Shown here one piece after another: positions 9,858-25,532 of a stretch of 25,637 bases of DNA (position 1 is its first letter; the number at the start of each line of letters is the position of its first letter). The position numbers and the translations under genes are program-made. The notes below the pieces were generated by a model, which searched no databases, was not told the origin of the DNA, and worked only from the letters and a program-made list of their open reading frames with translations. Origin of the DNA: a virus (taxonomy: Duplodnaviria > Caudoviricetes); IMG/VR virus record IMGVR_UViG_3300049000_000065, positions 1-25,637 of that record, one strand, 5' to 3'.

Positions 9858-10754
9858 ATGAGCAGCAGTCGGTACACGGCCAGCCAGCAGGACGCGATCC
9901 GGCGCGACAACCGCGCCATGGAGGCGGCCGCCGTCTCGATGGTCACGGAGCTCGACGACCTGTTCGCGCTCGTCGCCGCCGGCTCGATCGGGATCACGGC
10001 GGCGGCGTCCGACGTGGACAGCCTCGCCCTCGGCGGCGGGGCGTTCACGGCCAACCCCAACACCACCAGCGGCCTGACCTTCGGCTACTCGGCTGGCCGC
10101 TTCCACAACGGCAAGAGCCTGGTGTCGGTGGGGGCGGGCACCGTCGCCCTCTCGGCCAGCGCCACCAATTACGTGGAGGTGGATCGGGCCGGCACCGTCA
10201 GTGCTAACACCAGCGCCTTCACCGCCGGCCGCCTGCCGCTGTGGGTGATCGTCACCGGCGTGGGGGCGATCAGCAGCGTCATGATCAGCAAGCCGCTGAT
10301 GACGCTGATCGGCCTGGCGGGAGTCACCGGCGACATGCTCAGCAGCGCGGGGGCGACCAAGTCGGTGGAGGTCGCCCTGGGCGACCTGGCGGCGACGACG
10401 GCCGTGAGCCTGATCTGCCCTGCCTTCGGGGCGACCTTGGCCCGCGTGTCGTTCGTCAGCAAGACGGCAGTGACGGCGGATGACACCAACTATTGGACGT
10501 GGTCCCTCAAGAATAAGGGGGCGGCCGGGACGGGCACCACGGACCTGCTGGACACCACCGCCACCAACACGACCAAAGCCACCGGCGGCACGGCCACCGT
10601 CGCCTACGTCCGGCGGCTGCTGGCCCTCACCGGCACCGGGGCCAACCTGGCGACGGCCGCCGAGGACGTGCTGGAGCTCACGGTCACCAAGACGGCCAGC
10701 GCCACCACGATGGCCCAATGCACGGTGCGGCTCGACTTCACGTTCACGGCGTAA
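9858..10754 (+). CDS. Virion structural protein, fibre/decoration-like
   Basis: Thr/Ala/Gly-rich; TTSGLTFGY..G...GTVALSASATNYVEV...GTVSANT..FTAG.LPL..(I)VTG motif recalled from phage tail proteins. Confidence 0.6.
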   Translation: MSSSRYTASQQDAIRRDNRAMEAAAVSMVTELDDLFALVAAGSIGITAAASDVDSLALGGGAFTANPNTTSGLTFGYSAGRFHNGKSLVSVGAGTVALSASATNYVEVDRAGTVSANTSAFTAGRLPLWVIVTGVGAISSVMISKPLMTLIGLAGVTGDMLSSAGATKSVEVALGDLAATTAVSLICPAFGATLARVSFVSKTAVTADDTNYWTWSLKNKGAAGTGTTDLLDTTATNTTKATGGTATVAYVRRLLALTGTGANLATAAEDVLELTVTKTASATTMAQCTVRLDFTFTA

Positions 10755-10755
10755 G

Positions 10756-10776
10756 AGTTGCGAGTTGCGAGTTGCG
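10756..10776 (+). repeat. Heptamer tandem repeat (AGTTGCG x3)
   Basis: agttgcg x3 followed by AGTGAAAGGCA. Confidence 0.85.
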
Positions 10777-10795
10777 AGTGAAAGGCAGGATCGAC

Positions 10796-11950
10796 ATGCG
10801 GCGGTGGAAGAAACTCGACCTGGTGTTCTACGGGGCCATCCTGCTGGCGGCGGTCCTCTGCGGGCTGATCGCCTGGATGCTGCCCGAGGCGGCGCGGGGG
10901 GACGTGCCGGCGACCCAGCCGGCCACGCAGCCGGCGGCGACCCAGCAGCGCGTGCCGGTGGCGGTCTACAGCCAGCCGGCCGGGTCGCTGGCCAAGTGGG
11001 CGGGGCGCGGGGTGACCGTGGCCCTGCGCTACGAGCCCGAGGCGAGGGGGGACGGGACGCCCACCGTGAGCGTGGCCCAGTGGGTCGCCGCCGCCAAGGC
11101 CGCCGGACTGCACTACGTCCTACAGGCCGACGCCGTGGGCGACTGGGCCGACCCCGACCTGCTGGGGGCCTTGTGCCCGTGGGACGAGCCCGACCAGGAC
11201 AACGCCCACCGCGTCCCGCCGGCCCGCATCGCGGCCGACGCCGACCGGGCCTTCCGCTCCGGGGCGCGGCTCTACTTCGTGAGCCTGGACGCGCTGCAGT
11301 TAGAGCTCTGGCAGGAATCGTGGGACGCCCACCCCGGCGCCGTCGGCCCGGCCTTCTACGACTACGCCGGGCTGGCCAAGGCGCTGGCCCCCTGGGGCAC
11401 CCGGGTGGTGGTCCTGGGGGACATGTACCCCGACAACCAGGGGCGCGGCGGGGCGGCCGCCGCACTCAAGGCCAACGAGCAGCGAACGCTGGCCACCCTC
11501 TTCCCCGCCTGCCGGCGCGGCTCATTCGTCGAGTGCTCCGACCAGAAGCTGCAGGGGTTGGGCAACCGCCAGGGCGGGGCCCGTTCCCCCGGCGCCGACG
11601 AGTTCGCCGCCCAGGTGCGGGCCGTGGCGGCGGCGGGCGCGTCCCTGGTCTGCCTCTTCCCGCAGTGCGTGGCCCCCGGCGACTTCGCCTACGACGCCAC
11701 CCCCGACGCCGTCGCCGCCGCGATCCCCCCGCTGGCCGCCCCCGCCTCGGCGCTGGCGGCCCTGGCCCCGGCGGCGTTGCCGATCCCCCCACCGACCACC
11801 GGGCCGACGCCGCCCCCGACGCCGCCCCCGACAACGGGGCCGACGACGCAGCCCGCCCCGTCCGCCGACACCCAGGGGCAGATCCTCGACACGCTCCGGC
11901 GGATCGAGTCGCTCCTCCGCCAACAGCAGCAGCAGACCGGGACCCACTGA
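10796..11950 (+). CDS. Exported or membrane-anchored protein with a glycoside-hydrolase-like domain
   Basis: Basic N-terminus plus hydrophobic helix, PATQPATQPAATQ linker, WDEPD, DMYP and FVE motifs, Pro/Thr linker, short C-terminal helix. Confidence 0.55.
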   Translation: MRRWKKLDLVFYGAILLAAVLCGLIAWMLPEAARGDVPATQPATQPAATQQRVPVAVYSQPAGSLAKWAGRGVTVALRYEPEARGDGTPTVSVAQWVAAAKAAGLHYVLQADAVGDWADPDLLGALCPWDEPDQDNAHRVPPARIAADADRAFRSGARLYFVSLDALQLELWQESWDAHPGAVGPAFYDYAGLAKALAPWGTRVVVLGDMYPDNQGRGGAAAALKANEQRTLATLFPACRRGSFVECSDQKLQGLGNRQGGARSPGADEFAAQVRAVAAAGASLVCLFPQCVAPGDFAYDATPDAVAAAIPPLAAPASALAALAPAALPIPPPTTGPTPPPTPPPTTGPTTQPAPSADTQGQILDTLRRIESLLRQQQQQTGTH

Positions 11951-13026
11951 TGCCCTCGCCCGCGTACCAGCAATACGTCCCCCGCGCCGGCAACCTCGAC
12001 CCGGTCGGCGACGGCCAGCCCGCGCCGCGGGCGAGGCTGCCGCTGATGGGCGCGAGCGGCACGAGCCACGCCTCGGGCCTCGTGCCCGACCCCGGCGCGT
12101 CGGCCGGCTCGACCCGCTACCTGCGTGAGGACGCGACGTGGGCGGCCCCGGCCGGCGGGGGCGCGGTCACCTCCGTCGCCGGCCGCACCGGAGCGGTCAC
12201 GCTCGGCGAGGCCGACGTGGCGGGGCTGGTGGCGGACCTGGCCGCCGTCCGCTCCGTCGCCGTCGCCAGTGACCTGGCCGGCGCCGGCGTCGTCCCGGCC
12301 TACGCCGGGCAGATAGGGACCAAGCGGTCCGACGGCTCCGTGTGGGTCGCCAACAGCACCACGGCCGGCGACTGGTCGCCGGCCCGCGTCGGCTTCGCCG
12401 CCACCGCCGCGACTCTCGCCCCCACCACCACCGTCCACCTCAACGGCCAGACCCTCGACGCCGACGGCGGGGCGCTGGTCAACGCCACGCTCCTCCAGTG
12501 CGTCGGGGCCGCCCGGACCTTCGCGGACGCCTCGGACCGCGCTACCGCCACCCCCGCCAACGCCGGCCAGCTGGGGGTGCAGATCGACGACGGCTCGGCG
12601 TGGCGGGCCAACAGCACCACCGCCGGCGACTGGTCGCAGTCGTTCACCTTCGGCGCGGTCGCCGTCTCGGTCCTCACCGCCTCCGGCCCGATCAGCGGCG
12701 GGAACTACCTCCGGCTGGGTCCCTTCGACGCCCTGATGCCGGACCCCTCCTGGGCCGGGCGGGCGATGGAGTTCGGGTACTGGGACGCCGGTGACTACGG
12801 CCTGATGCAGTGCTACGACAGGTCGGGGGCGGGCTACAAGAACTTCAAGATCGACGCCGCCACGCTGTTCTTGAACACCAGCAGCGGCGGCCCGGTGAAC
12901 GTCGGCGGCACCCTCGACGCCCCCGGCTACAGCGTGGGCGGCGTGGGCGGGTGGAGCGGCACCTACGTCACCGGCGACGGCCGCACCGCCACCGTCGCCG
13001 GCGGCCTCATTACCAGCGTCGTCTGA
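11950..13026 (+). CDS. Fibre-like protein (tail or head fibre)
   Basis: GLVPDPGA...RYLREDATWAAP and VTSVAGRTGAVTL fibre motifs; internal PA.AGQ.G....DGS.W.ANSTTAGDWS duplication; TGATG coupling. Confidence 0.75.
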   Translation: MPSPAYQQYVPRAGNLDPVGDGQPAPRARLPLMGASGTSHASGLVPDPGASAGSTRYLREDATWAAPAGGGAVTSVAGRTGAVTLGEADVAGLVADLAAVRSVAVASDLAGAGVVPAYAGQIGTKRSDGSVWVANSTTAGDWSPARVGFAATAATLAPTTTVHLNGQTLDADGGALVNATLLQCVGAARTFADASDRATATPANAGQLGVQIDDGSAWRANSTTAGDWSQSFTFGAVAVSVLTASGPISGGNYLRLGPFDALMPDPSWAGRAMEFGYWDAGDYGLMQCYDRSGAGYKNFKIDAATLFLNTSSGGPVNVGGTLDAPGYSVGGVGGWSGTYVTGDGRTATVAGGLITSVV

Positions 13027-13039
13027 GCGAGAGGAACCG

Positions 13040-13345
13040 ATGCCCCTGCCCGCGAGCAACCCCACGACGACCCCCGCCCAGCCGGCCAGGACTTACGGGC
13101 ACTGGTGGCTCAAGGGGCTCCAGTTGTCGGCCCCCGCGCCGCTCCGGCCCGCCGCCGCGCTGGTGACGCTCCAGAAATACGCCGACGACGGGACGCTCAG
13201 CCCCCTGCCCGGCGACACCCTCACCCTGCCCCTGGCCGACATCCTCAGTCCGGCGATGCAGTCCAAATACCCGCAACTCGCCGCCGCCGTGGGGGCGGTC
13301 CTCACCGCCGTGCTGGCGATCGGCACCGATCTGGGAAAGCTCTGA
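13040..13345 (+). CDS. Hypothetical protein, possibly fibre-associated
   Basis: GAGG RBS; directly follows the fibre gene. Confidence 0.6.
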   Translation: MPLPASNPTTTPAQPARTYGHWWLKGLQLSAPAPLRPAAALVTLQKYADDGTLSPLPGDTLTLPLADILSPAMQSKYPQLAAAVGAVLTAVLAIGTDLGKL

Positions 13346-16600: not shown

Positions 16601-16821
16601 TCGCGGTCACCCGCGGCGCGGTGACCCCGCGGGAGGTCCTGCTGATGCGGGCGGACGTGGCGGTCGAGTTGTGCGCGGCCCATGCCCGGCTGGCGCGGCG
16701 GGCCGAGGCCGGCGGCGACGACGACGGGCAGACGCGCGTGCGGGGGGACGGGTCGATGGTGACCGCGATCCGCTCCATGGAAGGGTTACGCGGGTTCCTG
16801 GGCAGTAGAGGCAAGCCATGA
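16229..16821 (+). CDS. Frameshifted tail chaperone (gpGT-like), -1 shift at A AAA AAA (16507-16513)
   Basis: The -1 frame is open from the run (KNPCPRRGGG...EFDVWELVVAMIAVTRG...) to TGA 16821, overlapping the tape measure ATG. Confidence 0.8.
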
Positions 16822-18299
16822 GCTTCAGCGCCGGCGCCATCACGGGATCGATCGGGCTGGACATCAGCGAATACTCGCACTCCATGCTGGAGGCGACGAG
16901 CATCGCCCATATCTTCCCCTCCACCGTGACCAGCTTCCTGGCCTCGCCCCTGCTCGGCCTGGTGGACATCGCCAAGCGGGCGGGGGAGGCCATCGTGGGG
17001 GCGTTCACCTCGGTCGGCCGCGCGGCCGACAACGCCGGCGAGGCGGCCGAGCGGGCGGGCGTGTCGGTCGAGTTCCTCACCAGCGTCGGGGCCGCCGCCA
17101 AGGACTCGGGCAGCAGCGTTCAGGGGCTGGGGGACGCCCTGAAGTTTTTGAACAACAACGCCGCCGACGCCGCTTCGGGCAACGAGCAGACGGCCAAGAA
17201 CTTCACCGACCTGGGCGTGAGCGTCACCAGCGCCGGGGGGAAGCTCAAGGGCACCGAGGCCCTGTTCTTCGAGTTGGCCGACGCGATCGCCAAGCTCCCC
17301 ACCGCCGCCCAGAAGACGCAGGCCGCCATGAACCTGCTGGGGCGCGGGGGGGTGGACATGATCCCGACGCTGAACAAGGGGTCCGCCTCGATCAAGGAGT
17401 TCGCCGCCCAGATCACCGAGTTGGGCGGCGCCATCGGCACCGACCTGGCGGCGGCCGGCGACAAGTTCGGCGCGCTGGAGACCTTCGTGGGCGCGGCCTG
17501 GGACGGGATCAAGAAGTCGGTCGCCCAGCCGATCCTCCAGTACGTCGCCGACCACTTCGAGGAGATTTTAGTCATGGTGAAGGGGGTGGCCGGACAGGTC
17601 CGCCAAGCGGCGGGTGGCGTGGGCACGTCGATCGTCGCGGCGATCCCCGACCTCCTCAAATTCGCCGGCGCGGTCGCGTCCGGCGTGGTCAAGGCGCTGC
17701 AGGCGCTGGCCACCGTCGCCGCCTTCGTCGCCCGCCACCTCGACGCCCTTAAGGCCGTGCTGGGCGCGGCGGGGCTGGTATTGGCGGCGGAACTGGGAAT
17801 GAAAGCCATCGGCGGCCTGGCCGGCGCCTTCGCCACCCTCATCCCACAACTTGCCGCCGCCACCGCCGCGCAGACGGCTTTCAACGCGGCGCGGGCGGGG
17901 CTCCTCACGGCGGGGATCGGCGCGGCGGTCGGGGGGATCGCCGGCGACGGCGGGATGGGCTCGCTCGCCGGCGGGGCCGGGGGCGGCATCTTGGGTCGGC
18001 TGATCGGGGGGCTGATCGGCTCGATCTTCGGCCCCCTCGGCACGCTCATCGGGCAGTGGGTCGGCGCGTTGGGCGGGGCCGTGGCCGGCGGGAAGGTCGG
18101 CACCGCCCTGGGCGGCGGCGGGTCGGGCGGGGGCACCCGCATCGAGCAGGTGAACGTCACGGTGCCCCCGGTGGACACGAACGAGGCCTCCAGCCAGATC
18201 GCAGCCAAGATACGCCCCGGTCTCCAGGAGGGGATCAAGAAGCAAAAGAAACAACTGCACGCGGCCCGCTCGGCCGAGCTGGTGTTGCGGTCCCTGTAG
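16818..18299 (+). CDS. Tail tape measure protein
   Basis: AGAITGSIGLD start, AERAGVSVEFL, F.DLGVSV, AMNLLGRGG.DMIP.LN.G, Gly/Ala-rich hydrophobic C-terminal half. Confidence 0.92.
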   Translation: MSFSAGAITGSIGLDISEYSHSMLEATSIAHIFPSTVTSFLASPLLGLVDIAKRAGEAIVGAFTSVGRAADNAGEAAERAGVSVEFLTSVGAAAKDSGSSVQGLGDALKFLNNNAADAASGNEQTAKNFTDLGVSVTSAGGKLKGTEALFFELADAIAKLPTAAQKTQAAMNLLGRGGVDMIPTLNKGSASIKEFAAQITELGGAIGTDLAAAGDKFGALETFVGAAWDGIKKSVAQPILQYVADHFEEILVMVKGVAGQVRQAAGGVGTSIVAAIPDLLKFAGAVASGVVKALQALATVAAFVARHLDALKAVLGAAGLVLAAELGMKAIGGLAGAFATLIPQLAAATAAQTAFNAARAGLLTAGIGAAVGGIAGDGGMGSLAGGAGGGILGRLIGGLIGSIFGPLGTLIGQWVGALGGAVAGGKVGTALGGGGSGGGTRIEQVNVTVPPVDTNEASSQIAAKIRPGLQEGIKKQKKQLHAARSAELVLRSL

Positions 18300-18326: not shown

Positions 18327-19541
18327 ATGGCCACCTTCGACAACATCTTCCAGGCCACGGTCGGCGGCGACACCTTCCAGTTGTCCGATTACACCGTGCG
18401 TGTCGAGCCGATCCTCAAGGACCCCTACGGGCGGGTCGGCAGCACGGTGGAGATCAGCGGGGAGGGGTGGGTCGAGGCCAGCTCGCCTTTGGGCTTCACG
18501 GCCGCCCTGGGCAGCGCCTACGCGGGGATGCGGAGGGACGGTCGGAACTTCGCAATCCGCGGACTCGGCGGGCAGATCGAGGTCGAGCTCCTCGCCGCCG
18601 CTTGCGTCGAGGGGGGGCCTTGGATCGGGTTCGAGGTATTGCAGCAGAAGGGGGGCAGCCAGCTCGTCAAGGAGTTCCGCTTCAAGGTCCATGCCAAGAC
18701 CTATGAGGACTGGGGGACGGCTGGCCAGTACAAGGTGCGCACGGCCGAGCGGCCCAACGGCCTGCGCACGGTGACGGTCAGTGGGGAGAACAACGGCCCG
18801 GGGGTGGGCGCTTCGTTCCTGGCCACCATCCAGCCGAAGTTCCGCGCCCTCTATCCACAGAAGTTGTGGGTGATGACGCACGAATACGAGACCAACGCGC
18901 TACAGGACCACCTGGAGTGGTCGATGCAGTTCGTGGAGCTGCTCGACCCGCTGCCGGTGTCGGCGGGGGGCACGGCGGTGGACGGGGAGGCCACCACCCG
19001 CATCGAGCGCGACGAGCAGATGCGGCTGGTGACGGACGTGACCTTCGATCTGTTGGTGGTGGGCGACACCGACGACCTGCTCAAGGCGCTGCGTGCCGGC
19101 ATCCAGGGGGTGATCCTGAAGGAAGGGTCGGAGGTGACGTTCCACAAGGAGCAGCGGCTGCGGGCGCATTTCAGCATGCTCCAGGGGGGTGACGGGAACG
19201 CGCTGATGAACTGGGAGCAGACGCTGGAGGCGGAGGGGGAGGATCCGCCGCTGATCGGGATCGAGTATCCGGGGAGCGACCCGATCATCCTCTTCGGCCC
19301 GAGCCCGGCCCACCACTACGTGCAGCGCGGGCGGGCCATCGGGGCGGGGCAGTTCGTCAAGCCGCCGCCGCCGATCTGGGGGCAGGACATCAGCGAGCCC
19401 CGCAAGACGGGGTTCACGCCGCTCAACGAGGTCGAGCGGGAGACGGTGTGGGAGTACCACTACCTGTTCAAGAACTCGCAGACGGTGACAGCGGCGATCC
19501 TGGCCCAGCTGGCCCGGCCGGCCGCCCCTTCCTTTTACTAG
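18327..19541 (+). CDS. Tail protein (distal tail/tip, positional)
   Basis: 404 aa beta-rich ORF directly after the tape measure. Confidence 0.55.
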   Translation: MATFDNIFQATVGGDTFQLSDYTVRVEPILKDPYGRVGSTVEISGEGWVEASSPLGFTAALGSAYAGMRRDGRNFAIRGLGGQIEVELLAAACVEGGPWIGFEVLQQKGGSQLVKEFRFKVHAKTYEDWGTAGQYKVRTAERPNGLRTVTVSGENNGPGVGASFLATIQPKFRALYPQKLWVMTHEYETNALQDHLEWSMQFVELLDPLPVSAGGTAVDGEATTRIERDEQMRLVTDVTFDLLVVGDTDDLLKALRAGIQGVILKEGSEVTFHKEQRLRAHFSMLQGGDGNALMNWEQTLEAEGEDPPLIGIEYPGSDPIILFGPSPAHHYVQRGRAIGAGQFVKPPPPIWGQDISEPRKTGFTPLNEVERETVWEYHYLFKNSQTVTAAILAQLARPAAPSFY

Positions 19542-19558
19542 CAACCGGCAACCGATTC

Positions 19559-22072
19559 ATGGCCCAGCGCTACTTCAACATCATCACCTTCCACCCCGGC
19601 GGCGGCGGCACGGGGCTGGTGTTGACGCTGGACAACGACTGGGTGATGACGCCGGGCGTCGAGCCGAACGTGAACACGGCGGTGTGCAGCTACAAGGAGT
19701 TCGACAAGCTGCCAAAGGACCTTTTCGATTTGAGCGGGGACGTGTGCTTCTGGTTCCACGGCGACCCCACCGGGGTGGACGGGGAGGGGGTCGCCAACCG
19801 GCCGGACGTGCGGATCAACAAGGTGAGCCTGGTGAGCGTGGACGTGAGCAAGTGGGGGCGGATCGACGAGCCGCCCTTCAACGTGCGGATCACGGAGTAC
19901 CGGCTCTACCTGGCCGACCGGCGGCAGGCGTTCGTCTGGCCGAGGGGCGGGTTCCTGCAACTGGGGGACCTCAACGCCGAGCCGTTCAACGCCTTCGGGA
20001 CGCAGGACCGCAACGGGCAGCCGAACCGCAGTGTGAAGTGGATGGTGGAGCGGTGCCTGGAGGCGATGGGGGAGGACGTGACCAATGATGTGGTGGTGCC
20101 GGCGGCGCTGAGCGACGTGCCCCGGCCGATGAACGTGCAGTGGCGCGGGAACCACGCCCCCACCGAGCTGGCCAAGTTGCTGGAGCATAACGGGTACGTG
20201 CTGATCGTGCGGACGGACGGGCACTTCCGGCTGGAGCAGATCGGGGACGGGAACGTGCCGGAGATCAACACCGACCAGGCGTTGCCGCCGTTGCCGGTGC
20301 CCAACGTGGACCGGCGGGGGAAGATCGTGGTCATCACCAGCCACCCCAACGCGGTGGTGGTAACTCAAACCTTCAAGCTCAACACCGAGTCGGGCAGCGA
20401 CTTTGACTTCGTGGTGCAGGACGACGACGACGTCTGGAAGCCGCTGGCGGCGGTGAGCTTCTTCCAGGCGCTGGACCCGGTCGAGGCGGTGAAGACCAAC
20501 TTCTTCGGGGTGCCGGAGAAGTATCGGGCGCGGGTGGCCACGCAGACCTACCGCTGCATCCGGCTGGACCCGGGGACGTTCGGGCCGACGCCGATGTTGC
20601 GGTGGCGGGTGGAGAAGCCGGCTGGGAAGGTGGGGGGACTGCAGCCGATCCAGGTGCGGGCCATTCTGCCGGTGCTGCAGCAGGATGGGAGTTGGGTCAA
20701 CAGCACCGACCTGGTGACTGCCCACCCGGCGCACCTGCTGGCCGAGGGCGCGGTGCTGACGACGAGTGAGCGCCTCGGCAAGATCGACGGGGGGTCTACG
20801 ATCGACCAGCCCGACGCCGACTTCGCGGAGCTGGAGGATGATGAGTTGGAGATCCGGGTCAGTTACGAGGCGATGTTCCAGGCGAAGGCCGACCCGGCCG
20901 ACCAGGGGGGAGAGCAGGCGTGGCGGTTCGAGTATTTCACGGTGGGGTTCCAGCAGGACTTCGGGGGCATCCGCAAGCTCAGTGACGACGAGCTCAATAA
21001 CGCCCTGGCCGGCCCCGACCCGATCATCGTGCCGCGGCCGGAGCTCAAGCTGCTGCGGATCGACGGGAAGGATGTGAACCGCACGGACCTGGAGGGTGCG
21101 GCGCGGGACCTCGCCCCGCGCTGGCTGCGCAACAGCGGGACGCCGACGAGCCTGACCCTGGCCAAGGGGTTCCAGTTCGGCAACTGCTCGGGCAAGGTGG
21201 CGGAGGTCCGCTACACGCAGGGGCCGCCCAACGGCACGGGCGGGCCGCTGACCACGTTCAAGATCAACACCTGGTGGCTGCCGCACGGGCAGTACCTGAG
21301 CCAGAGCAAGAAGGAGTCGGGCAAGGAGGGCGGGGCGTCGGCCGGGAACGAGGCCCACCCCCAGCAGGCGCAGACGGAAGGAAGGCGGACGGCGCTGGGG
21401 GAGTCGGGCAGCACCCAGCCGGCCGTGCCGGTGCTGCCGGCCCAGCCGCCCCCGCCGCCCAAGCAGGTGGCGCTCGTGCAGGTGGTCGGCCCCGCCTACG
21501 GGGGGCCCGGCGGCGGCGCGGGGAACAACAACGGCGGCAAGTATCAGGTGCGGATCGAGAGCGGCCCGACGACGGCGATGAGCGCCGGCAACTTGGCCAT
21601 GCCCGAGGGGCTGCAGGCCGGGACGCTGGCGCTGGGCCTCAACGCGGCCGAGGACGGGTTCAAGTCCAACCTCCTGACGGACGGCTACTACCTGGGCTGG
21701 CTGGCCGGCCCCTCGACCGACAACCCGCCGGTGCCGACGGTGGTCCTCAACGCCGTCGAGCCGGCCTGCTTCCACGTGAGCGTCGAGAAGGACAACGAAG
21801 GGGAGGGCGGCAGCCAGGGCGGGGCGGGGGACGCCGACGACAGCGGCACCACGACCGCCACCTACACCTACACGGTGCGGACGCTGGACCAGTCGGCGAA
21901 GCTGGGGGAGAAGGTCGCCCCGAAGATGCAGCGCAGCCCCGGCCACAAGACGCCGGGCACGTGGGGCATCGCCTGCATCAGCGCCGGGAAGCTGGTGTTG
22001 ATCTGGGTGGACGAGGTGGAGACGACCGACGCCTGCGACGACTCCAGCGGGTCGGGGGGAGGCACGCCATGA
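19559..22072 (+). CDS. Large tail tip/hub-like protein
   Basis: About 837 aa; hub-like segment (VERCLEAMG...P.NVQWRG..APTELAKLLE..GY.L); start moved to ATG 19559. Confidence 0.6.
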   Translation: MAQRYFNIITFHPGGGGTGLVLTLDNDWVMTPGVEPNVNTAVCSYKEFDKLPKDLFDLSGDVCFWFHGDPTGVDGEGVANRPDVRINKVSLVSVDVSKWGRIDEPPFNVRITEYRLYLADRRQAFVWPRGGFLQLGDLNAEPFNAFGTQDRNGQPNRSVKWMVERCLEAMGEDVTNDVVVPAALSDVPRPMNVQWRGNHAPTELAKLLEHNGYVLIVRTDGHFRLEQIGDGNVPEINTDQALPPLPVPNVDRRGKIVVITSHPNAVVVTQTFKLNTESGSDFDFVVQDDDDVWKPLAAVSFFQALDPVEAVKTNFFGVPEKYRARVATQTYRCIRLDPGTFGPTPMLRWRVEKPAGKVGGLQPIQVRAILPVLQQDGSWVNSTDLVTAHPAHLLAEGAVLTTSERLGKIDGGSTIDQPDADFAELEDDELEIRVSYEAMFQAKADPADQGGEQAWRFEYFTVGFQQDFGGIRKLSDDELNNALAGPDPIIVPRPELKLLRIDGKDVNRTDLEGAARDLAPRWLRNSGTPTSLTLAKGFQFGNCSGKVAEVRYTQGPPNGTGGPLTTFKINTWWLPHGQYLSQSKKESGKEGGASAGNEAHPQQAQTEGRRTALGESGSTQPAVPVLPAQPPPPPKQVALVQVVGPAYGGPGGGAGNNNGGKYQVRIESGPTTAMSAGNLAMPEGLQAGTLALGLNAAEDGFKSNLLTDGYYLGWLAGPSTDNPPVPTVVLNAVEPACFHVSVEKDNEGEGGSQGGAGDADDSGTTTATYTYTVRTLDQSAKLGEKVAPKMQRSPGHKTPGTWGIACISAGKLVLIWVDEVETTDACDDSSGSGGGTP

Positions 22073-22680
22073 GCGGAGGCTACGCGCAGCTGAAGGGGGG
22101 GAAGCGGACGCTCCACGGCGGCAAGTGCATCCTGGTCGGCAAGGGCGACCCGTGCTGTTGCGGCCCCGGCGACTGCCCCGACTGCGGCGGAGGGACGGTC
22201 CCCCTGCATTTCACCTGCACCCTCGCGGCGGTTTCGCTGGCCCAAGGCTGCTCCGACGGCGGCGGGCCGATCAACTCCATCTGGATCGACCAGGCCACCC
22301 TCGCCGGCACCTTCACCCTGACCCGCCGCGATGCACTCGGCGACCCGCTGGGGGCGCTCGACGGCAAGTGCGTCTGGTTCTACGGCGAGACCCCCGGCGT
22401 CACCGTATCCGCCCAATCCTACGCCAACGTGGTCTGCAACAACCCGGACACGAAGACCGGCGACTTCGGCTTCTACGTCGAGCTTTCCCGCGAGGGGACG
22501 CAGTTCGTCCTGCGCGTGTGGCTCGGCAACGCGGACCTGCTCGTCCATGAGTTGTTCTTCAATGAGAGCAACCCGACCGACGACTGCGACACAAGCGCGA
22601 ACTTCGTGGGCGGCCCGCCGGCCACCTACGTCTTCCCCAAGGGGGGCGGCGGCACCGCCACGGTCACCCCGGCGGCCTGA
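22069..22680 (+). CDS. Cys-rich putative tail-tip/receptor-binding protein (CCC motif)
   Basis: GGAGG RBS and ATGA overlap; 203 aa with 11 Cys, including KC...PCCCGPGDCPDC. Confidence 0.7.
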   Translation: MSGGYAQLKGGKRTLHGGKCILVGKGDPCCCGPGDCPDCGGGTVPLHFTCTLAAVSLAQGCSDGGGPINSIWIDQATLAGTFTLTRRDALGDPLGALDGKCVWFYGETPGVTVSAQSYANVVCNNPDTKTGDFGFYVELSREGTQFVLRVWLGNADLLVHELFFNESNPTDDCDTSANFVGGPPATYVFPKGGGGTATVTPAA

Positions 22681-22694
22681 AAGGAGGCAGCGGC

Positions 22695-23207
22695 GTGGGC
22701 ACCTTCGGAGCGAACATCACCCTCTGCCACACCTGCGCCAACGCCTGCCCGCCCCCCCGCCGCGGCGGCTGCCCTTGCCGGGCCGACGCCTCCGGCCGGG
22801 ACATCATCGAGCTGGCCAGCGCGGGCCAATGCCCCGCCGGCCTCTTCGGCAGCGCCGCCTCCGGCCCGCCCGCCGTCGCGCCGCTGAAGTCCGTGAACTG
22901 GGCCGACCTCGGCCGGGCGATGTGGGCCGAGCTGCACGGCCGGGCGCTGTCGCCGGTCGGGCTGTGCGCGTCGTGGCTGGCGGAGTGGACGAGCCGCATC
23001 CCGTGCGGCGACTGCCGGCGTCACTGGCGGGCTCTGCTGGTCGAGCTGCCGCCGGTGTTCGGGGAGGGTGCCTTTGGGTGGTCGGTGGCCGCTCACAACG
23101 CGGTCAACCGGAGGCTGGGGAAGGTGGAGAGGAGCGAAGCGGACGCGAGGGGAAAATGGTCTGTCGAGGGGGCGCCGAAGGTCGTTCGAGAGGCCGTCGA
23201 AGGCTGA
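22695..23207 (+). CDS. Erv1/Alr-family FAD-linked sulfhydryl oxidase with a Cys-rich N-terminal domain
   Basis: AAGGAGG RBS and GTG; LGRAMWAELH, IPCGDCRRHW, FGWSVAAHNAVNRRLGK and terminal W match the Erv/Alr signature. Confidence 0.85.
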   Translation: MGTFGANITLCHTCANACPPPRRGGCPCRADASGRDIIELASAGQCPAGLFGSAASGPPAVAPLKSVNWADLGRAMWAELHGRALSPVGLCASWLAEWTSRIPCGDCRRHWRALLVELPPVFGEGAFGWSVAAHNAVNRRLGKVERSEADARGKWSVEGAPKVVREAVEG

Positions 23208-23247: not shown

Positions 23248-23274
23248 AAAAAAGGCCGGTCCAATGGACCGGCC
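23248..23274 (-). terminator. Intrinsic terminator on the minus strand just inside the prophage end
   Basis: Perfect GGCCGGTCC/GGACCGGCC stem preceded on + by A6, i.e. a U6 tail on the minus strand. Confidence 0.7.
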
Positions 23275-23296: not shown

Positions 23297-23341
23297 TGCA
23301 AAGTAGCTGTCCAGAAATGCAATCTTCGGTGTCCAACTACA
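23297..23341 (-). repeat. Candidate prophage right end with two transposase-binding repeats
   Basis: Read inward: TGTAGT-TGGACAccgaagatTGCAtttc-TGGACAgctacttTGCA; TGGACA copies 22 bp apart. Confidence 0.6.
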
Positions 23342-23721
23342 GCGAGAAGCCGCCGAATCCCGAACACACGGACTGGGACATCCTGCTGAACAAGCTGCTG
23401 GGGATCGGCCTGCCGCCGGTGGCGTTGTTGATTCTGCTGTGGGCGCACTACAACTCGCGCGGGGTGTACCGGCTGGCCGGCCACACGCTGTCGGTCCCCG
23501 GCCACCCGGCGGTGGACCTCGGCCAGATCACGCGCATCGACGACCACCTGTGGGACAAGAAGGGGATCGCGTACCTGTACTACCGGGGGAACGGCGGGGA
23601 GCGGAAGATTCGACTGGATGATTTCATCTATGACCGCGAGCCGACCGACGAGATTTATCGGCGGGTCGAGGCCCATGTGAACGGCGTGGCGGACGAGGAG
23701 GCGGAGGAAGAAGCGGCGTGA
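23342..23721 (+). pseudogene. 3' remnant of a host membrane-protein gene interrupted by the prophage
   Basis: Host-like codon usage starts abruptly near 23342; HTDWDI-TM-...WDKKGIA.L.Y...LDDFIYDREPTDEI resembles a conserved planctomycete protein as I recall it; no convincing RBS/start upstream. Confidence 0.6.
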
Positions 23722-23766: not shown

Positions 23767-23808
23767 CACCCCGCGCCGGCCGACGAGGCTGGCGCGGGGT
23801 GTTTTTTT
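23767..23808 (+). terminator. Intrinsic terminator of the host gene
   Basis: 15-bp stem CACCCCGCGCCGGCC/GGCTGGCGCGGGGTG (one G-U), 5-nt loop, T7 tail. Confidence 0.9.
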
Positions 23809-25532
23809 CTACGACGGCAAAGCTGACTGGCGGGGGGTGAGCCTCTGATGTAGGGTCATAGGCTCCCACACGGAGGTATGACAATGGCCAGGAAGGCCTC
23901 CCGCCCCGATCCCACGGCCGAGCAGACGCTACGGCCGGTACTGGAAGCGTGCCCGCACTGCGGCGGGCCGTTGCGTTTCGATTACGACAACTGGCGGACT
24001 GTTTCCACTCTGGGCCCAGTGCTGCGGTTGCGGTTGAAGGTCGCCCGCTGCCACGGTCGGACGTGTACCCGCTTCCACAAGCCCTACCGGCCCGAGGCGG
24101 AGGGGCGGCTGGCGTTGCCGCAGCACGAGTTCGGCCTGGACGTGATCGCGCTGGTCGGGGCACTACGCTACCGCCAACACCGCAGCGTGCCGGAGGTCCA
24201 CCGGGAGTTAGCCTCCCGGGGCCTGGTCGTCTGCGAGCGCACCGTGACCAACCTGCTGGACCGCTACGACGAGTTGGTGGCGGCGCGAATGGGCGACGGC
24301 GAGCGGCTGCGCGGGTTGCTGGCGAAGCAAGGCCGGGTGGTCCTCGCCATCGACGGGCTGCAGCCGGACGTGGGCCACGAGGTGCTGTGGGTGCTGCGCG
24401 ACTGCCTCAGCGGCGAGGTGCTGCTGGCCCGGAGCCTTCTGTCGAGCACCGAGGCGGACTTGGCGGCGTTGATCGAGGAGGTCAAGGCGGGGTTGGACCG
24501 GGGGCCGGGGGAGGGACCTGTCCCGGTCGCCGCCGCGGTCTCCGACGGCCAGCACTCGGTCCGCAACGCGGTGGCCAGGGCCCTGCCGGGGGTGCCGCAC
24601 CAACTCTGCCACTTCCACTACCTGCGGGAGGCGGCCCGCCCGCTGTACGAGATGGACCGTCACGCCAAGAAGGAACTCAAGAAGCAGGTGCGCGACGTCC
24701 GCCCCATCGAGCGGGCGGTGGAGGCGCGGGCGGCCGCGGGCGACGCCCAGGCCGCCGCGGTGCTGGGCTACTGCTCTGCGGTGCGGTCGGCGGTCACCGA
24801 CGACGGCCGCCCGCCGCTGGAGGCCAGTGGCCTGAAGTTGCACGAGCGGCTCGCCGCCGTCGCCGCCAGCCTTGCCTCCGTCGAGCAAAAGGGGGCCTGC
24901 CCAAGGAACTGACGAAGTTGAAGGGGGTCATCGACAAGGGGCTGGAGCGGACGGCCGACCTGTGGCCGGACGTACGGGCGGGCTTCGACTTCGTCCACCG
25001 CGCCGCCCGCGTCCTGAAGAACGAGCCCGGAGGCGGGACGCCCTTGGAGGGGGAGGCGGTGCGGCGGCAGTACCAGGCGCTGCTGGACGACGCCCGCCGC
25101 GTCGCGGGCCGGGCGGCGGAGGGGGGTGACCTGCGCCAGGGGCTGGAGCACTTCCTGAAAGTCACCGCCAGTTACGAGCCGGGCCTCTTCCATTGCTACG
25201 ACACCGCCGGCCTGCCGCGGACCAACAACGCCTTGGAGCAGTTATTCGGCTCGACCCGCCACCACGAGCGCCGCTGCACCGGCCGCAAGGCCGCCAGCCC
25301 TGGGTTGGTCCTCCGCGGCTCGGTCCGAATCGCCGCCGGGCTGGCCACGCGTGGCCAGTGCTTCAGCGGCGAGGAGTTAGCCCCGACCGACCTACAGGCG
25401 TGGCGCGAGGTGAGAGCCGGGCTCGAAAGACGACGCCAGCAACGCGTGTCCCGCTGCCGATTCCGCCGCGACCCCGCTGCCTACCTTCACCAACTCGAGG
25501 CGGCCTTACTCAAGCCAACTTTGCCGTCGTAG
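23809..25532 (+). mobile_element. Complete insertion sequence (~1.72 kb), family not firmly assigned (ISNCY/IS256-like DDE)
   Basis: Terminal IRs CTACGACGGCAAAGCTGACT vs CTACGACGGCAAAGTTGGCT (18/20); transposase stop TAG lies at the end of the right IR. Confidence 0.9.
23884..25532 (+). CDS. DDE transposase in two frames joined by a -1 frameshift at A AAG GGG (24888-24894)
   Basis: OrfA: CPHC...C....C zinc finger, HTH, AIDGLQP, AVSDGQ, QLCHFH; OrfB: PRTNNALE; GGAGG RBS favours ATG 23884. Confidence 0.88.

Follow-up and report, generated by a model that had tools for sequence, protein, structure and literature searches.

Motifs and predicted fold point to an Erv-family gene at the putative tail-tip locus of a tailed phage, in a slot that other small cysteine proteins can fill

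Introduction

The poxvirus-type pathway for forming disulfides in the cytoplasm combines an oxidase with a thioredoxin-like relay. The Erv oxidases of giant viruses are a precedent for virus-encoded enzymes of this family (PMC3509050), and PMC10598087 notes the absence of bacterial homologues. Disulfide-linked siphophage tail tubes are a further precedent (PMC13576161). Here we describe an Erv/Alr-family gene, encoding the protein P0001, in a record of a tailed virus (Caudoviricetes; IMG/VR record IMGVR_UViG_3300049000_000065). The stretch analysed, referred to as the window, is the whole linear virus record of 25,637 bases, with an estimated completeness of 45%.

The original prediction had stated that no characterised example was known in a tailed phage. 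Our search of the literature outside subscription papers and supplements likewise turned up no paper on a phage Erv; database annotations may exist. As far as searched, an Erv-family gene in a tailed phage is not in print.

Results

P0001 carries the motifs and the predicted fold of the Erv family

The Erv gene and its product comprise the following features:
22695-23207, + strand: P0001, Erv/Alr-family protein of 170 amino acids with a GTG start (Pfam, fold and motifs)
22681-22687, + strand: Shine-Dalgarno-like AAGGAGG of the Erv gene, 7 nucleotides upstream of the GTG (sequence)
22713-22859, + strand: N-terminal cysteine module of P0001, CxxC...C...CxC...GRDI...CP-x-x-x-F (alignment)
22896-23168, + strand: Erv/Alr helical domain, predicted to bind flavin adenine dinucleotide (FAD) (PF04777, PDB sequence matches, model and Foldseek)
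23004-23015, + strand: C104-G-D-C107 of the Erv domain, aligned to the CxxC of 2hj3, 3gwl and 3o55

All motifs of the Erv/Alr signature named in the original prediction are present in P0001 and in order: G73-x3-W77-x2-L-H81, P103-C104-x2-C107-x2-H110-W111 and W129-x4-H134-N135-x-V137-N138-x2-L-G-K143, plus W155. The W..LH and W..HN.VN..LGK residues have a role in the FAD site, and W77, H81, W129, H134, N135, V137, N138 and K143 are identical to those of solved Ervs in the PDB alignments. The six N-terminal cysteines that had been reported are found at positions 11, 14, 18, 26, 28 and 46; with the additional Cys91, not counted before, the protein contains nine. The Pfam family Evr1_Alr, suggested as a check, matches P0001 with 31.5 bits against a cut-off of 27.6 (E 2.3e-7), and PF04777 scores 32.6 bits in a six-frame search, while no PHROG or NCBIfam family was matched. 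Among the PDB sequence matches at E up to 10, 13 of 14 are Erv proteins.

Structure prediction, likewise suggested, agrees with this assignment. The model, for which 57 sequences were used, shows an Erv-like core with a predicted local distance difference test score (pLDDT) of 94-98 and helices at residues 69-85, 92-100, 105-117, 123-141 and 148-155. Helix 3 begins at residue 105, which places C104-G-D-C107 at the helix start. Foldseek returned a probability of 1.00 to Erv2, ALR, AtErv1, Erv1 and pB119L (best E 5e-4), and the first 20 listed rows are all Erv structures. PMC3509050 defines Ervs by fold, active-site cysteines and cofactor binding; P0001 has the first two, and its sequence is consistent with the third. 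Neither P0001 nor its neighbor P0002 contains a hydrophobic stretch (maximum 19-residue hydropathy 1.06 and 1.17), which fits cytoplasmic proteins. The G+C content at third codon positions of the P0001 gene (0.91) is similar to that of the virion genes. Judged by motifs and modeled fold, P0001 is a real Erv-family gene in a tailed phage.

The Erv gene follows a cysteine-rich gene coupled to a putative tail-tip gene

Two genes upstream of P0001 complete the locus:
22069-22680, + strand: P0002, CCC-type cysteine-rich protein of 203 amino acids with 11 Cys, the likely substrate (Cys count, ATGA coupling)
19559-22072, + strand: P0003, putative tail-tip protein of 837 amino acids (position after the tape measure)
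21734-22048, + strand: C-terminal "adaptor" domain of P0003, about 100 amino acids, ending ...TTDAC826 (homology)

P0001 begins 14 nucleotides past the end of P0002. The description of P0002 as a 203-residue, 11-cysteine protein with a CCC motif (residues 29-31; 22153-22161) is borne out, as is its translational coupling, its ATG overlapping the TGA of 19559-22072 in the sequence ATGA. The designation of P0003 as a tail-tip gene agrees with its position after the tape measure, but the 837-residue protein has no Pfam, PHROG or NCBIfam match. P0002 gave no homologue in a homology search and no Pfam, PHROG or NCBIfam match; its N-terminal 85 residues align weakly, at 11.6 bits, with a profile built from 22 CCC proteins (a score that 1 of 1000 shuffles reached), mainly within the first 35 residues. 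CCC proteins carry 11-35 Cys at variable spacing. The cysteine content of P0001 and P0002 is 5.3-5.4%, compared with 0.57% in the 24 upstream open reading frames (ORFs; 38 cysteines among 6625 residues; binomial p of 8e-7 and 4e-8).

Of 301 genomes from the class to which G001 belongs, which we take to be Phycisphaerae, 43 have homologues of the adaptor domain. Where the adaptor has a Cys within its last 10 residues, a CCC-type gene comes next in 22 of 24 loci, against none of 6 without that Cys; these counts are from 30 loci fetched of 48 matches, and many of the genomes are close kin. We infer that Cys826 of P0003 is joined to the CCC motif of P0002, either covalently or through a metal.

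A same-strand frame with at least 5 Cys per 150 residues lies just upstream of Erv in 20 of 24 phage-type loci, compared with 1 of 18 control stretches taken 3 kb farther up and with 17 of the 56 loci of giant-virus type (27 phage-type loci were collected, 3 of them dropped as missed by the motif pattern, and the loci are not independent of descent). Most of these upstream proteins begin with a Cys cluster, and the gene preceding them mostly has a Cys near its end. A capsid or tape-measure gene was found in 7 of the 7 Erv loci scanned for one.

Phage-type Erv domains lie on one side of a branch in an unrooted tree

A profile of 21 phage-type domains matched 10,810 clusters at E 0.001 and 3,296 at 1e-10, counts that include eukaryotic and giant-virus Ervs, unsorted. 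The best 150 library matches contain CxxC (127), CxC (16) or neither (7), and the W..HNx[VI]N motif is present in 132 of them. Across the 21 rows there is no variation in the second Cys, W, H-N, V-N or LGK. W, HN, VN and LGK were part of the pattern used to collect these rows, which leaves H21 and the Cys as the only independent positions. The 21 phage-type rows make up one side of a branch with support 96/87 in a tree of 52 rows (88 before removal of near-copies), labelled from context and look. Because the domain is short and the tree unrooted, no direction of transfer follows.

A genome motif scan yielded 11 loci, from Verrucomicrobia/Chthoniobacteraceae (5), Tepidisphaerales (3) and giant-virus-type contigs of other assemblies (3); the host group of the window is putatively assigned from the titles of these loci together with the adaptor homologues. 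The Erv gene is rare in host genomes, with 1 of 401 by Pfam and 9 of 301 by the phage profile. Several variants were also observed. CxC replaces CxxC in the phage Ervs of L003, L005, L006, L035, L045, L064 and L070 (16 of the best 150). Erv is fused to long regions that resemble glycosyltransferases by eye, together with Cys modules, in L115:7758-9380, L118:5756-8917 and L045:6182-7540, and 16 of the best 150 matches extend more than 150 residues past the Erv domain. In L131 the Erv is degenerate and contains an internal stop.

Erv is one of three alternative proteins in the slot after the CCC gene

In the adaptor genomes, the place of Erv after the CCC gene is taken by a small protein with a domain of the pattern G-L-G-D...CxC..RR..N or by one with a DUF6171/phrog_13558-like domain. 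Viral contigs were scanned with the GLGD type as query, and the best 80 of 138 relatives were kept; classed by pattern, they comprise 51 GLGD, 23 DUF6171-like and 6 unclassed loci. The query favoured GLGD loci, and the 58 weaker matches left out could include Erv fusions. Of 73 testable slot loci, 70 have a CCC-like motif in the 1.5 kb upstream, compared with 8 of 67 control stretches. Tape-measure or capsid matches confirm the tailed-phage setting of L198 and L164; five other proteins at the tape-measure position had no PHROG match at 1e-5.

Among 15 Erv records, which include the window's and of which 2 are near complete, none holds phrog_13558 and none holds GLGD (2 GLGD controls were detected). 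Of the 43 genomes with the adaptor, just 3 contain an Erv match as well. Erv is thus one of three alternative slot proteins and not the defining partner of the CCC gene; that it is not obligatory and occupies a swappable slot is the added result here. GLGD proteins, like phage Ervs, alternate CxC and CxxC ahead of a conserved segment, a hint that this pair may be a redox dithiol.

The slot proteins have N-terminal Cys modules in common, whatever their last domain. The module of the window's protein consists, in the alignment, of four near-invariant Cys and an optional pair; it precedes Erv in at least 9 aligned relatives and DUF6171 in L158 and L171. The DUF6171-type protein of L171, whose gene adjoins an upstream 17-Cys CCC gene, matches residues 7-60 of P0001 at its N-terminus in 28 of 57 positions (49%). 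Erv, GLGD and DUF6171 can each also stand behind a second module, C..W...GG.C...YGG.PS...C..C. The conserved six-Cys module of P0001 is a candidate for a shuttle disulfide outside the core, a feature of cellular Ervs and of mimivirus R596, but the N-terminal 60 residues are modelled at low confidence (pLDDT 42-59) and a metal site is also possible; its predicted role is docking, shuttling or metal binding. In L111:1383-1913, an N-terminal Cys module and an Erv domain share one frame interrupted by a stop codon.

Two further settings of slot genes were noted. L162:14635-17355, L166:777-3260 and L167:14289-16900 each contain a hub-position gene, an adaptor ending in TTAC[ST], a CCC protein and a GLGD-CxC protein. 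In the three genomes, all read at 18-19 kb, this four-gene cassette is surrounded by housekeeping genes and has no head or tube gene near it, and about 17 related genomes hold the same trio; the cassette is possibly a domesticated phage tail-tip module. The DUF6171-like genes of L173, L177, L178 and L183-L185 adjoin genes that resemble sugar hydrolases or regulators by eye, outside a phage context.

Tail gene order and remaining features of the record

Pfam and PHROG identify a Mu-gp27-like small terminase, large terminase, portal, and minor and major head genes in the window, as well as genes for adaptor, neck and tape measure. After the tape measure, the order is the 404-residue gene, P0003 (837), P0002 (203) and P0001 (170). 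The protein at the tube position has 0 Cys. Three features flank the locus:
16818-18299, + strand: tape measure protein, 493 amino acids, 0 Cys, marking the tail module (PHROG tape-measure matches down to E 5e-22)
18327-19541, + strand: 404-residue protein after the tape measure, 1 Cys, putatively at the hub/distal-tail position (position only)
23254-23274, - strand: terminator-like hairpin just past the Erv gene, with its T-run on the minus strand (consensus match only)

The 404-residue protein has no PHROG or NCBIfam match, and its lone Pfam match is far under the cut-off. That P0001 is the last gene of the operon, as had been stated, is a tentative reading: a further + strand ORF (23317-23721) starts 109 nucleotides on, and the strongest + strand terminator-like hairpin (23767-23801) comes after it. 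This ORF encodes 134 residues with a hydrophobic stretch, has no Pfam or PHROG match and is a host gene or an accessory gene. Prophage status is likewise tentative; the record is linear and ends in transposase-like DNA. This transposase-like element (23878-25532) has two overlapping frames, of 344 and about 206 residues, and only weak IS66/IS256/ISH6 matches far under the cut-off. Its frame change lies near an A-run and G-run at 24887-24898, and a programmed frameshift is possible. Between the head genes and the head-tail adaptor (9858-13345) are four family-less genes (298, about 396, about 351 and 101 residues), the second with 7 Cys and a Pro/Thr-rich tail, which are perhaps head decoration or fibres.

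Discussion

On balance, we favour a reading in which P0001 works as a phage flavin thiol oxidase that introduces disulfides into the CCC protein, with the CCC protein linked to the terminal Cys of the tail tip. Thiol oxidase activity is likely. The observations comprise the family assignment, the predicted fold, the arrangement and coupling of the genes, the repeated presence of Cys-dense neighbours, and the exclusion between Erv and the two other small Cys proteins of the slot. Oxidation would take place in the host cytoplasm during tail-tip assembly. Electrons, by the precedent of the Erv family, would pass from a CCC-protein dithiol to C104-C107, then to FAD and finally to O2 or another acceptor, and a disulfide would join the CCC protein to the terminal Cys of P0003. 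The domain swaps suggest a docking or relay role of the N-terminal Cys module towards the CCC protein, and the Erv domain may be one of three interchangeable thiol-handling domains for the slot.

Several findings weigh against this reading. The proposed search for co-occurrence with CCC-type genes came out in two ways: Erv does lie beside a Cys-rich gene (20 of 24 versus 1 of 18), but CCC genes need no Erv. It is missing from 80 of 80 loci whose slot holds another small Cys protein and from all 50 whole virus records of those loci, 22 of them at least 90% complete; this profile search had no positive control of its own, and the same profile found unseen Ervs elsewhere. Erv is therefore not required for this tail tip. 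By hhalign, no likeness to Erv is detectable in the alternative slot domains (probability 0.7% and 1.2%), and they are not known to act in redox reactions. Genes of the DUF6171-like type are found outside phage contexts too; of 22 with an upstream frame, only 10 had one of at least 3% Cys. Four or more N-terminal Cys are present in 40 of 150 relatives and lacking in 110. Four of the 24 Erv loci have no upstream Cys-dense frame (L032, L042, L113 and L115); in L042 a 62-Cys gene lies downstream of Erv, and in L113 Erv is fused to a 1502-residue frame. Pfam identified no thioredoxin- or glutaredoxin-like relay partner among the 28 ORFs of the window, which is less than half of a genome by the completeness estimate. 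Finally, tail-tube proteins assemble without disulfides, and the authors of that work allow for spontaneous oxidation (PMC13576161).

The main rival is metal or Fe-S ligation, which we regard as unlikely. Here the Cys clusters would be ligands, the CCC motif and the terminal Cys of the adaptor would form an inter-subunit site, the slot proteins would act as metal-binding chaperones or caps, and Erv would have a side role in thiol protection or cluster handling. The N-terminal module has the core CxxC...C...C and DUF6171 has CxxC...CxxCxC...C, patterns that resemble metal sites; the slot is often filled without a recognisable oxidase, and the occurrence of DUF6171-like genes in non-phage settings fits a general metal-binding role. 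Tail-tip cysteines can bind [4Fe-4S], as in lambda gpL, and both gpL and gp13 of the Rhodobacter capsulatus gene transfer agent (RcGTA) have tail-tip Fe-S clusters (PMC10721106). However, P0003 has no match to a gpL-type family, 11-35 Cys at variable spacing would be more typical of disulfide-rich proteins than of a fixed metal site, and relatives keep an intact Erv active site.

A second alternative, to which we give still less weight, is that the slot protein serves as a structural component of the tip. A virion-packaged Erv would then oxidise or reshuffle tip cysteines after lysis, or exchange thiols with host envelope proteins at adsorption, rather than act in the cytoplasm. The gene is placed within the series of virion genes, translationally near the CCC gene. 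A change of the C-terminal domain leaves the N-terminal modules in place, as expected for a virion-docking part, and some Erv domains form fusions with long proteins of tail-region or glycosyltransferase-like type. Planctomycete envelopes are cysteine-rich, which bears on such an exchange. Oxidation by air after lysis, however, could need no enzyme (PMC13576161). An Erv domain reduced to a non-catalytic remnant, or carried as a passenger gene unlinked to the CCC protein, is improbable: the Pfam score is just 3.9 bits above the cut-off (positions 30-92 of 93), some copies are broken by stops (L111/L132, L131) and four loci lack a Cys-dense neighbor, but all motif residues are intact in the window's P0001, its core is confidently modelled, and both the enrichment next to Cys-dense frames and the mutual exclusion with other slot genes speak against it.

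Beyond the preferred oxidase reading, a broader and more tentative proposal is a three-gene cassette for tail-tip oxidation, in phages apparently of planctomycetes and verrucomicrobia. It would consist of a terminal-Cys adaptor, a disulfide-locked CCC protein and a maturase (Erv, GLGD-CxC or DUF6171-like, behind shared docking modules), with the last two possibly being undescribed disulfide catalysts or relays unrelated to Erv. If tailed phages have a working Erv, a phage would be driving the making of disulfides in the bacterial cytoplasm, and the question of where the Erv family arose would be reopened. Through the slot swap the idea can be tested directly, and two families without assigned function gain a functional lead; the 170-residue enzyme and its 203-residue candidate substrate may be tested in Escherichia coli without the phage.

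Comparison with known systems

DUF6171 (PF19668)/phrog_13558 is another occupant of the slot behind CCC genes and in L158 and L171 carries the N-terminal module of P0001, but belongs to an unrelated fold family and is absent from the window's record and 14 other Erv records. Lambda gpL, with its [4Fe-4S] domain, has conserved Cys in the C-terminal part of a tail-tip protein (PMC10721106), as does P0003. Unlike gpL, P0003 and P0002 have no family match, the adaptor has one conserved terminal Cys instead of four, and an Erv gene follows. Protein gp39 of a siphovirus tail tube also has disulfides in a siphophage tail, where they join the tube rings, with no phage oxidase known (PMC13576161); unlike gp39, the tube-position protein of the window is free of Cys, and the cysteines are in the tip-position proteins.

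The cellular Erv1, ALR and Erv2 proteins (2hj3, 1oqc and 1jra) include the best sequence match of P0001 (2hj3, E 7e-5) and its best fold matches (probability 1.00). The second Cys set of P0001, on a flexible arm, recalls the shuttle disulfide that PMC3509050 describes. P0001 lacks the Cys after the helix-4 Trp that is found in 2hj3 and ALR, and it has no targeting signal; unlike in cellular Ervs, its N-terminal module has six Cys and occurs also without Erv.

Protein pB119L of African swine fever virus (PDB 3gwl) and the compact Ervs of further nucleocytoplasmic large DNA viruses (NCLDVs) share with P0001 the same helical core with a FAD-proximal CxxC. pB119L superimposes on P0001 with a Foldseek TM-score of 0.77 by target and a root-mean-square deviation of 2.4 Å over 98 columns, at about 24% identity. 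NCLDV Ervs are virus-encoded, like P0001, and the virion role of the group is known (PMC3509050, PMC10598087). Phage-type and giant-virus-type rows are separated by the branch described above (96/87; labels assigned by us). Unlike the NCLDV Ervs, P0001 is the product of a tailed-bacteriophage gene and carries an extra six-Cys N-terminal module.

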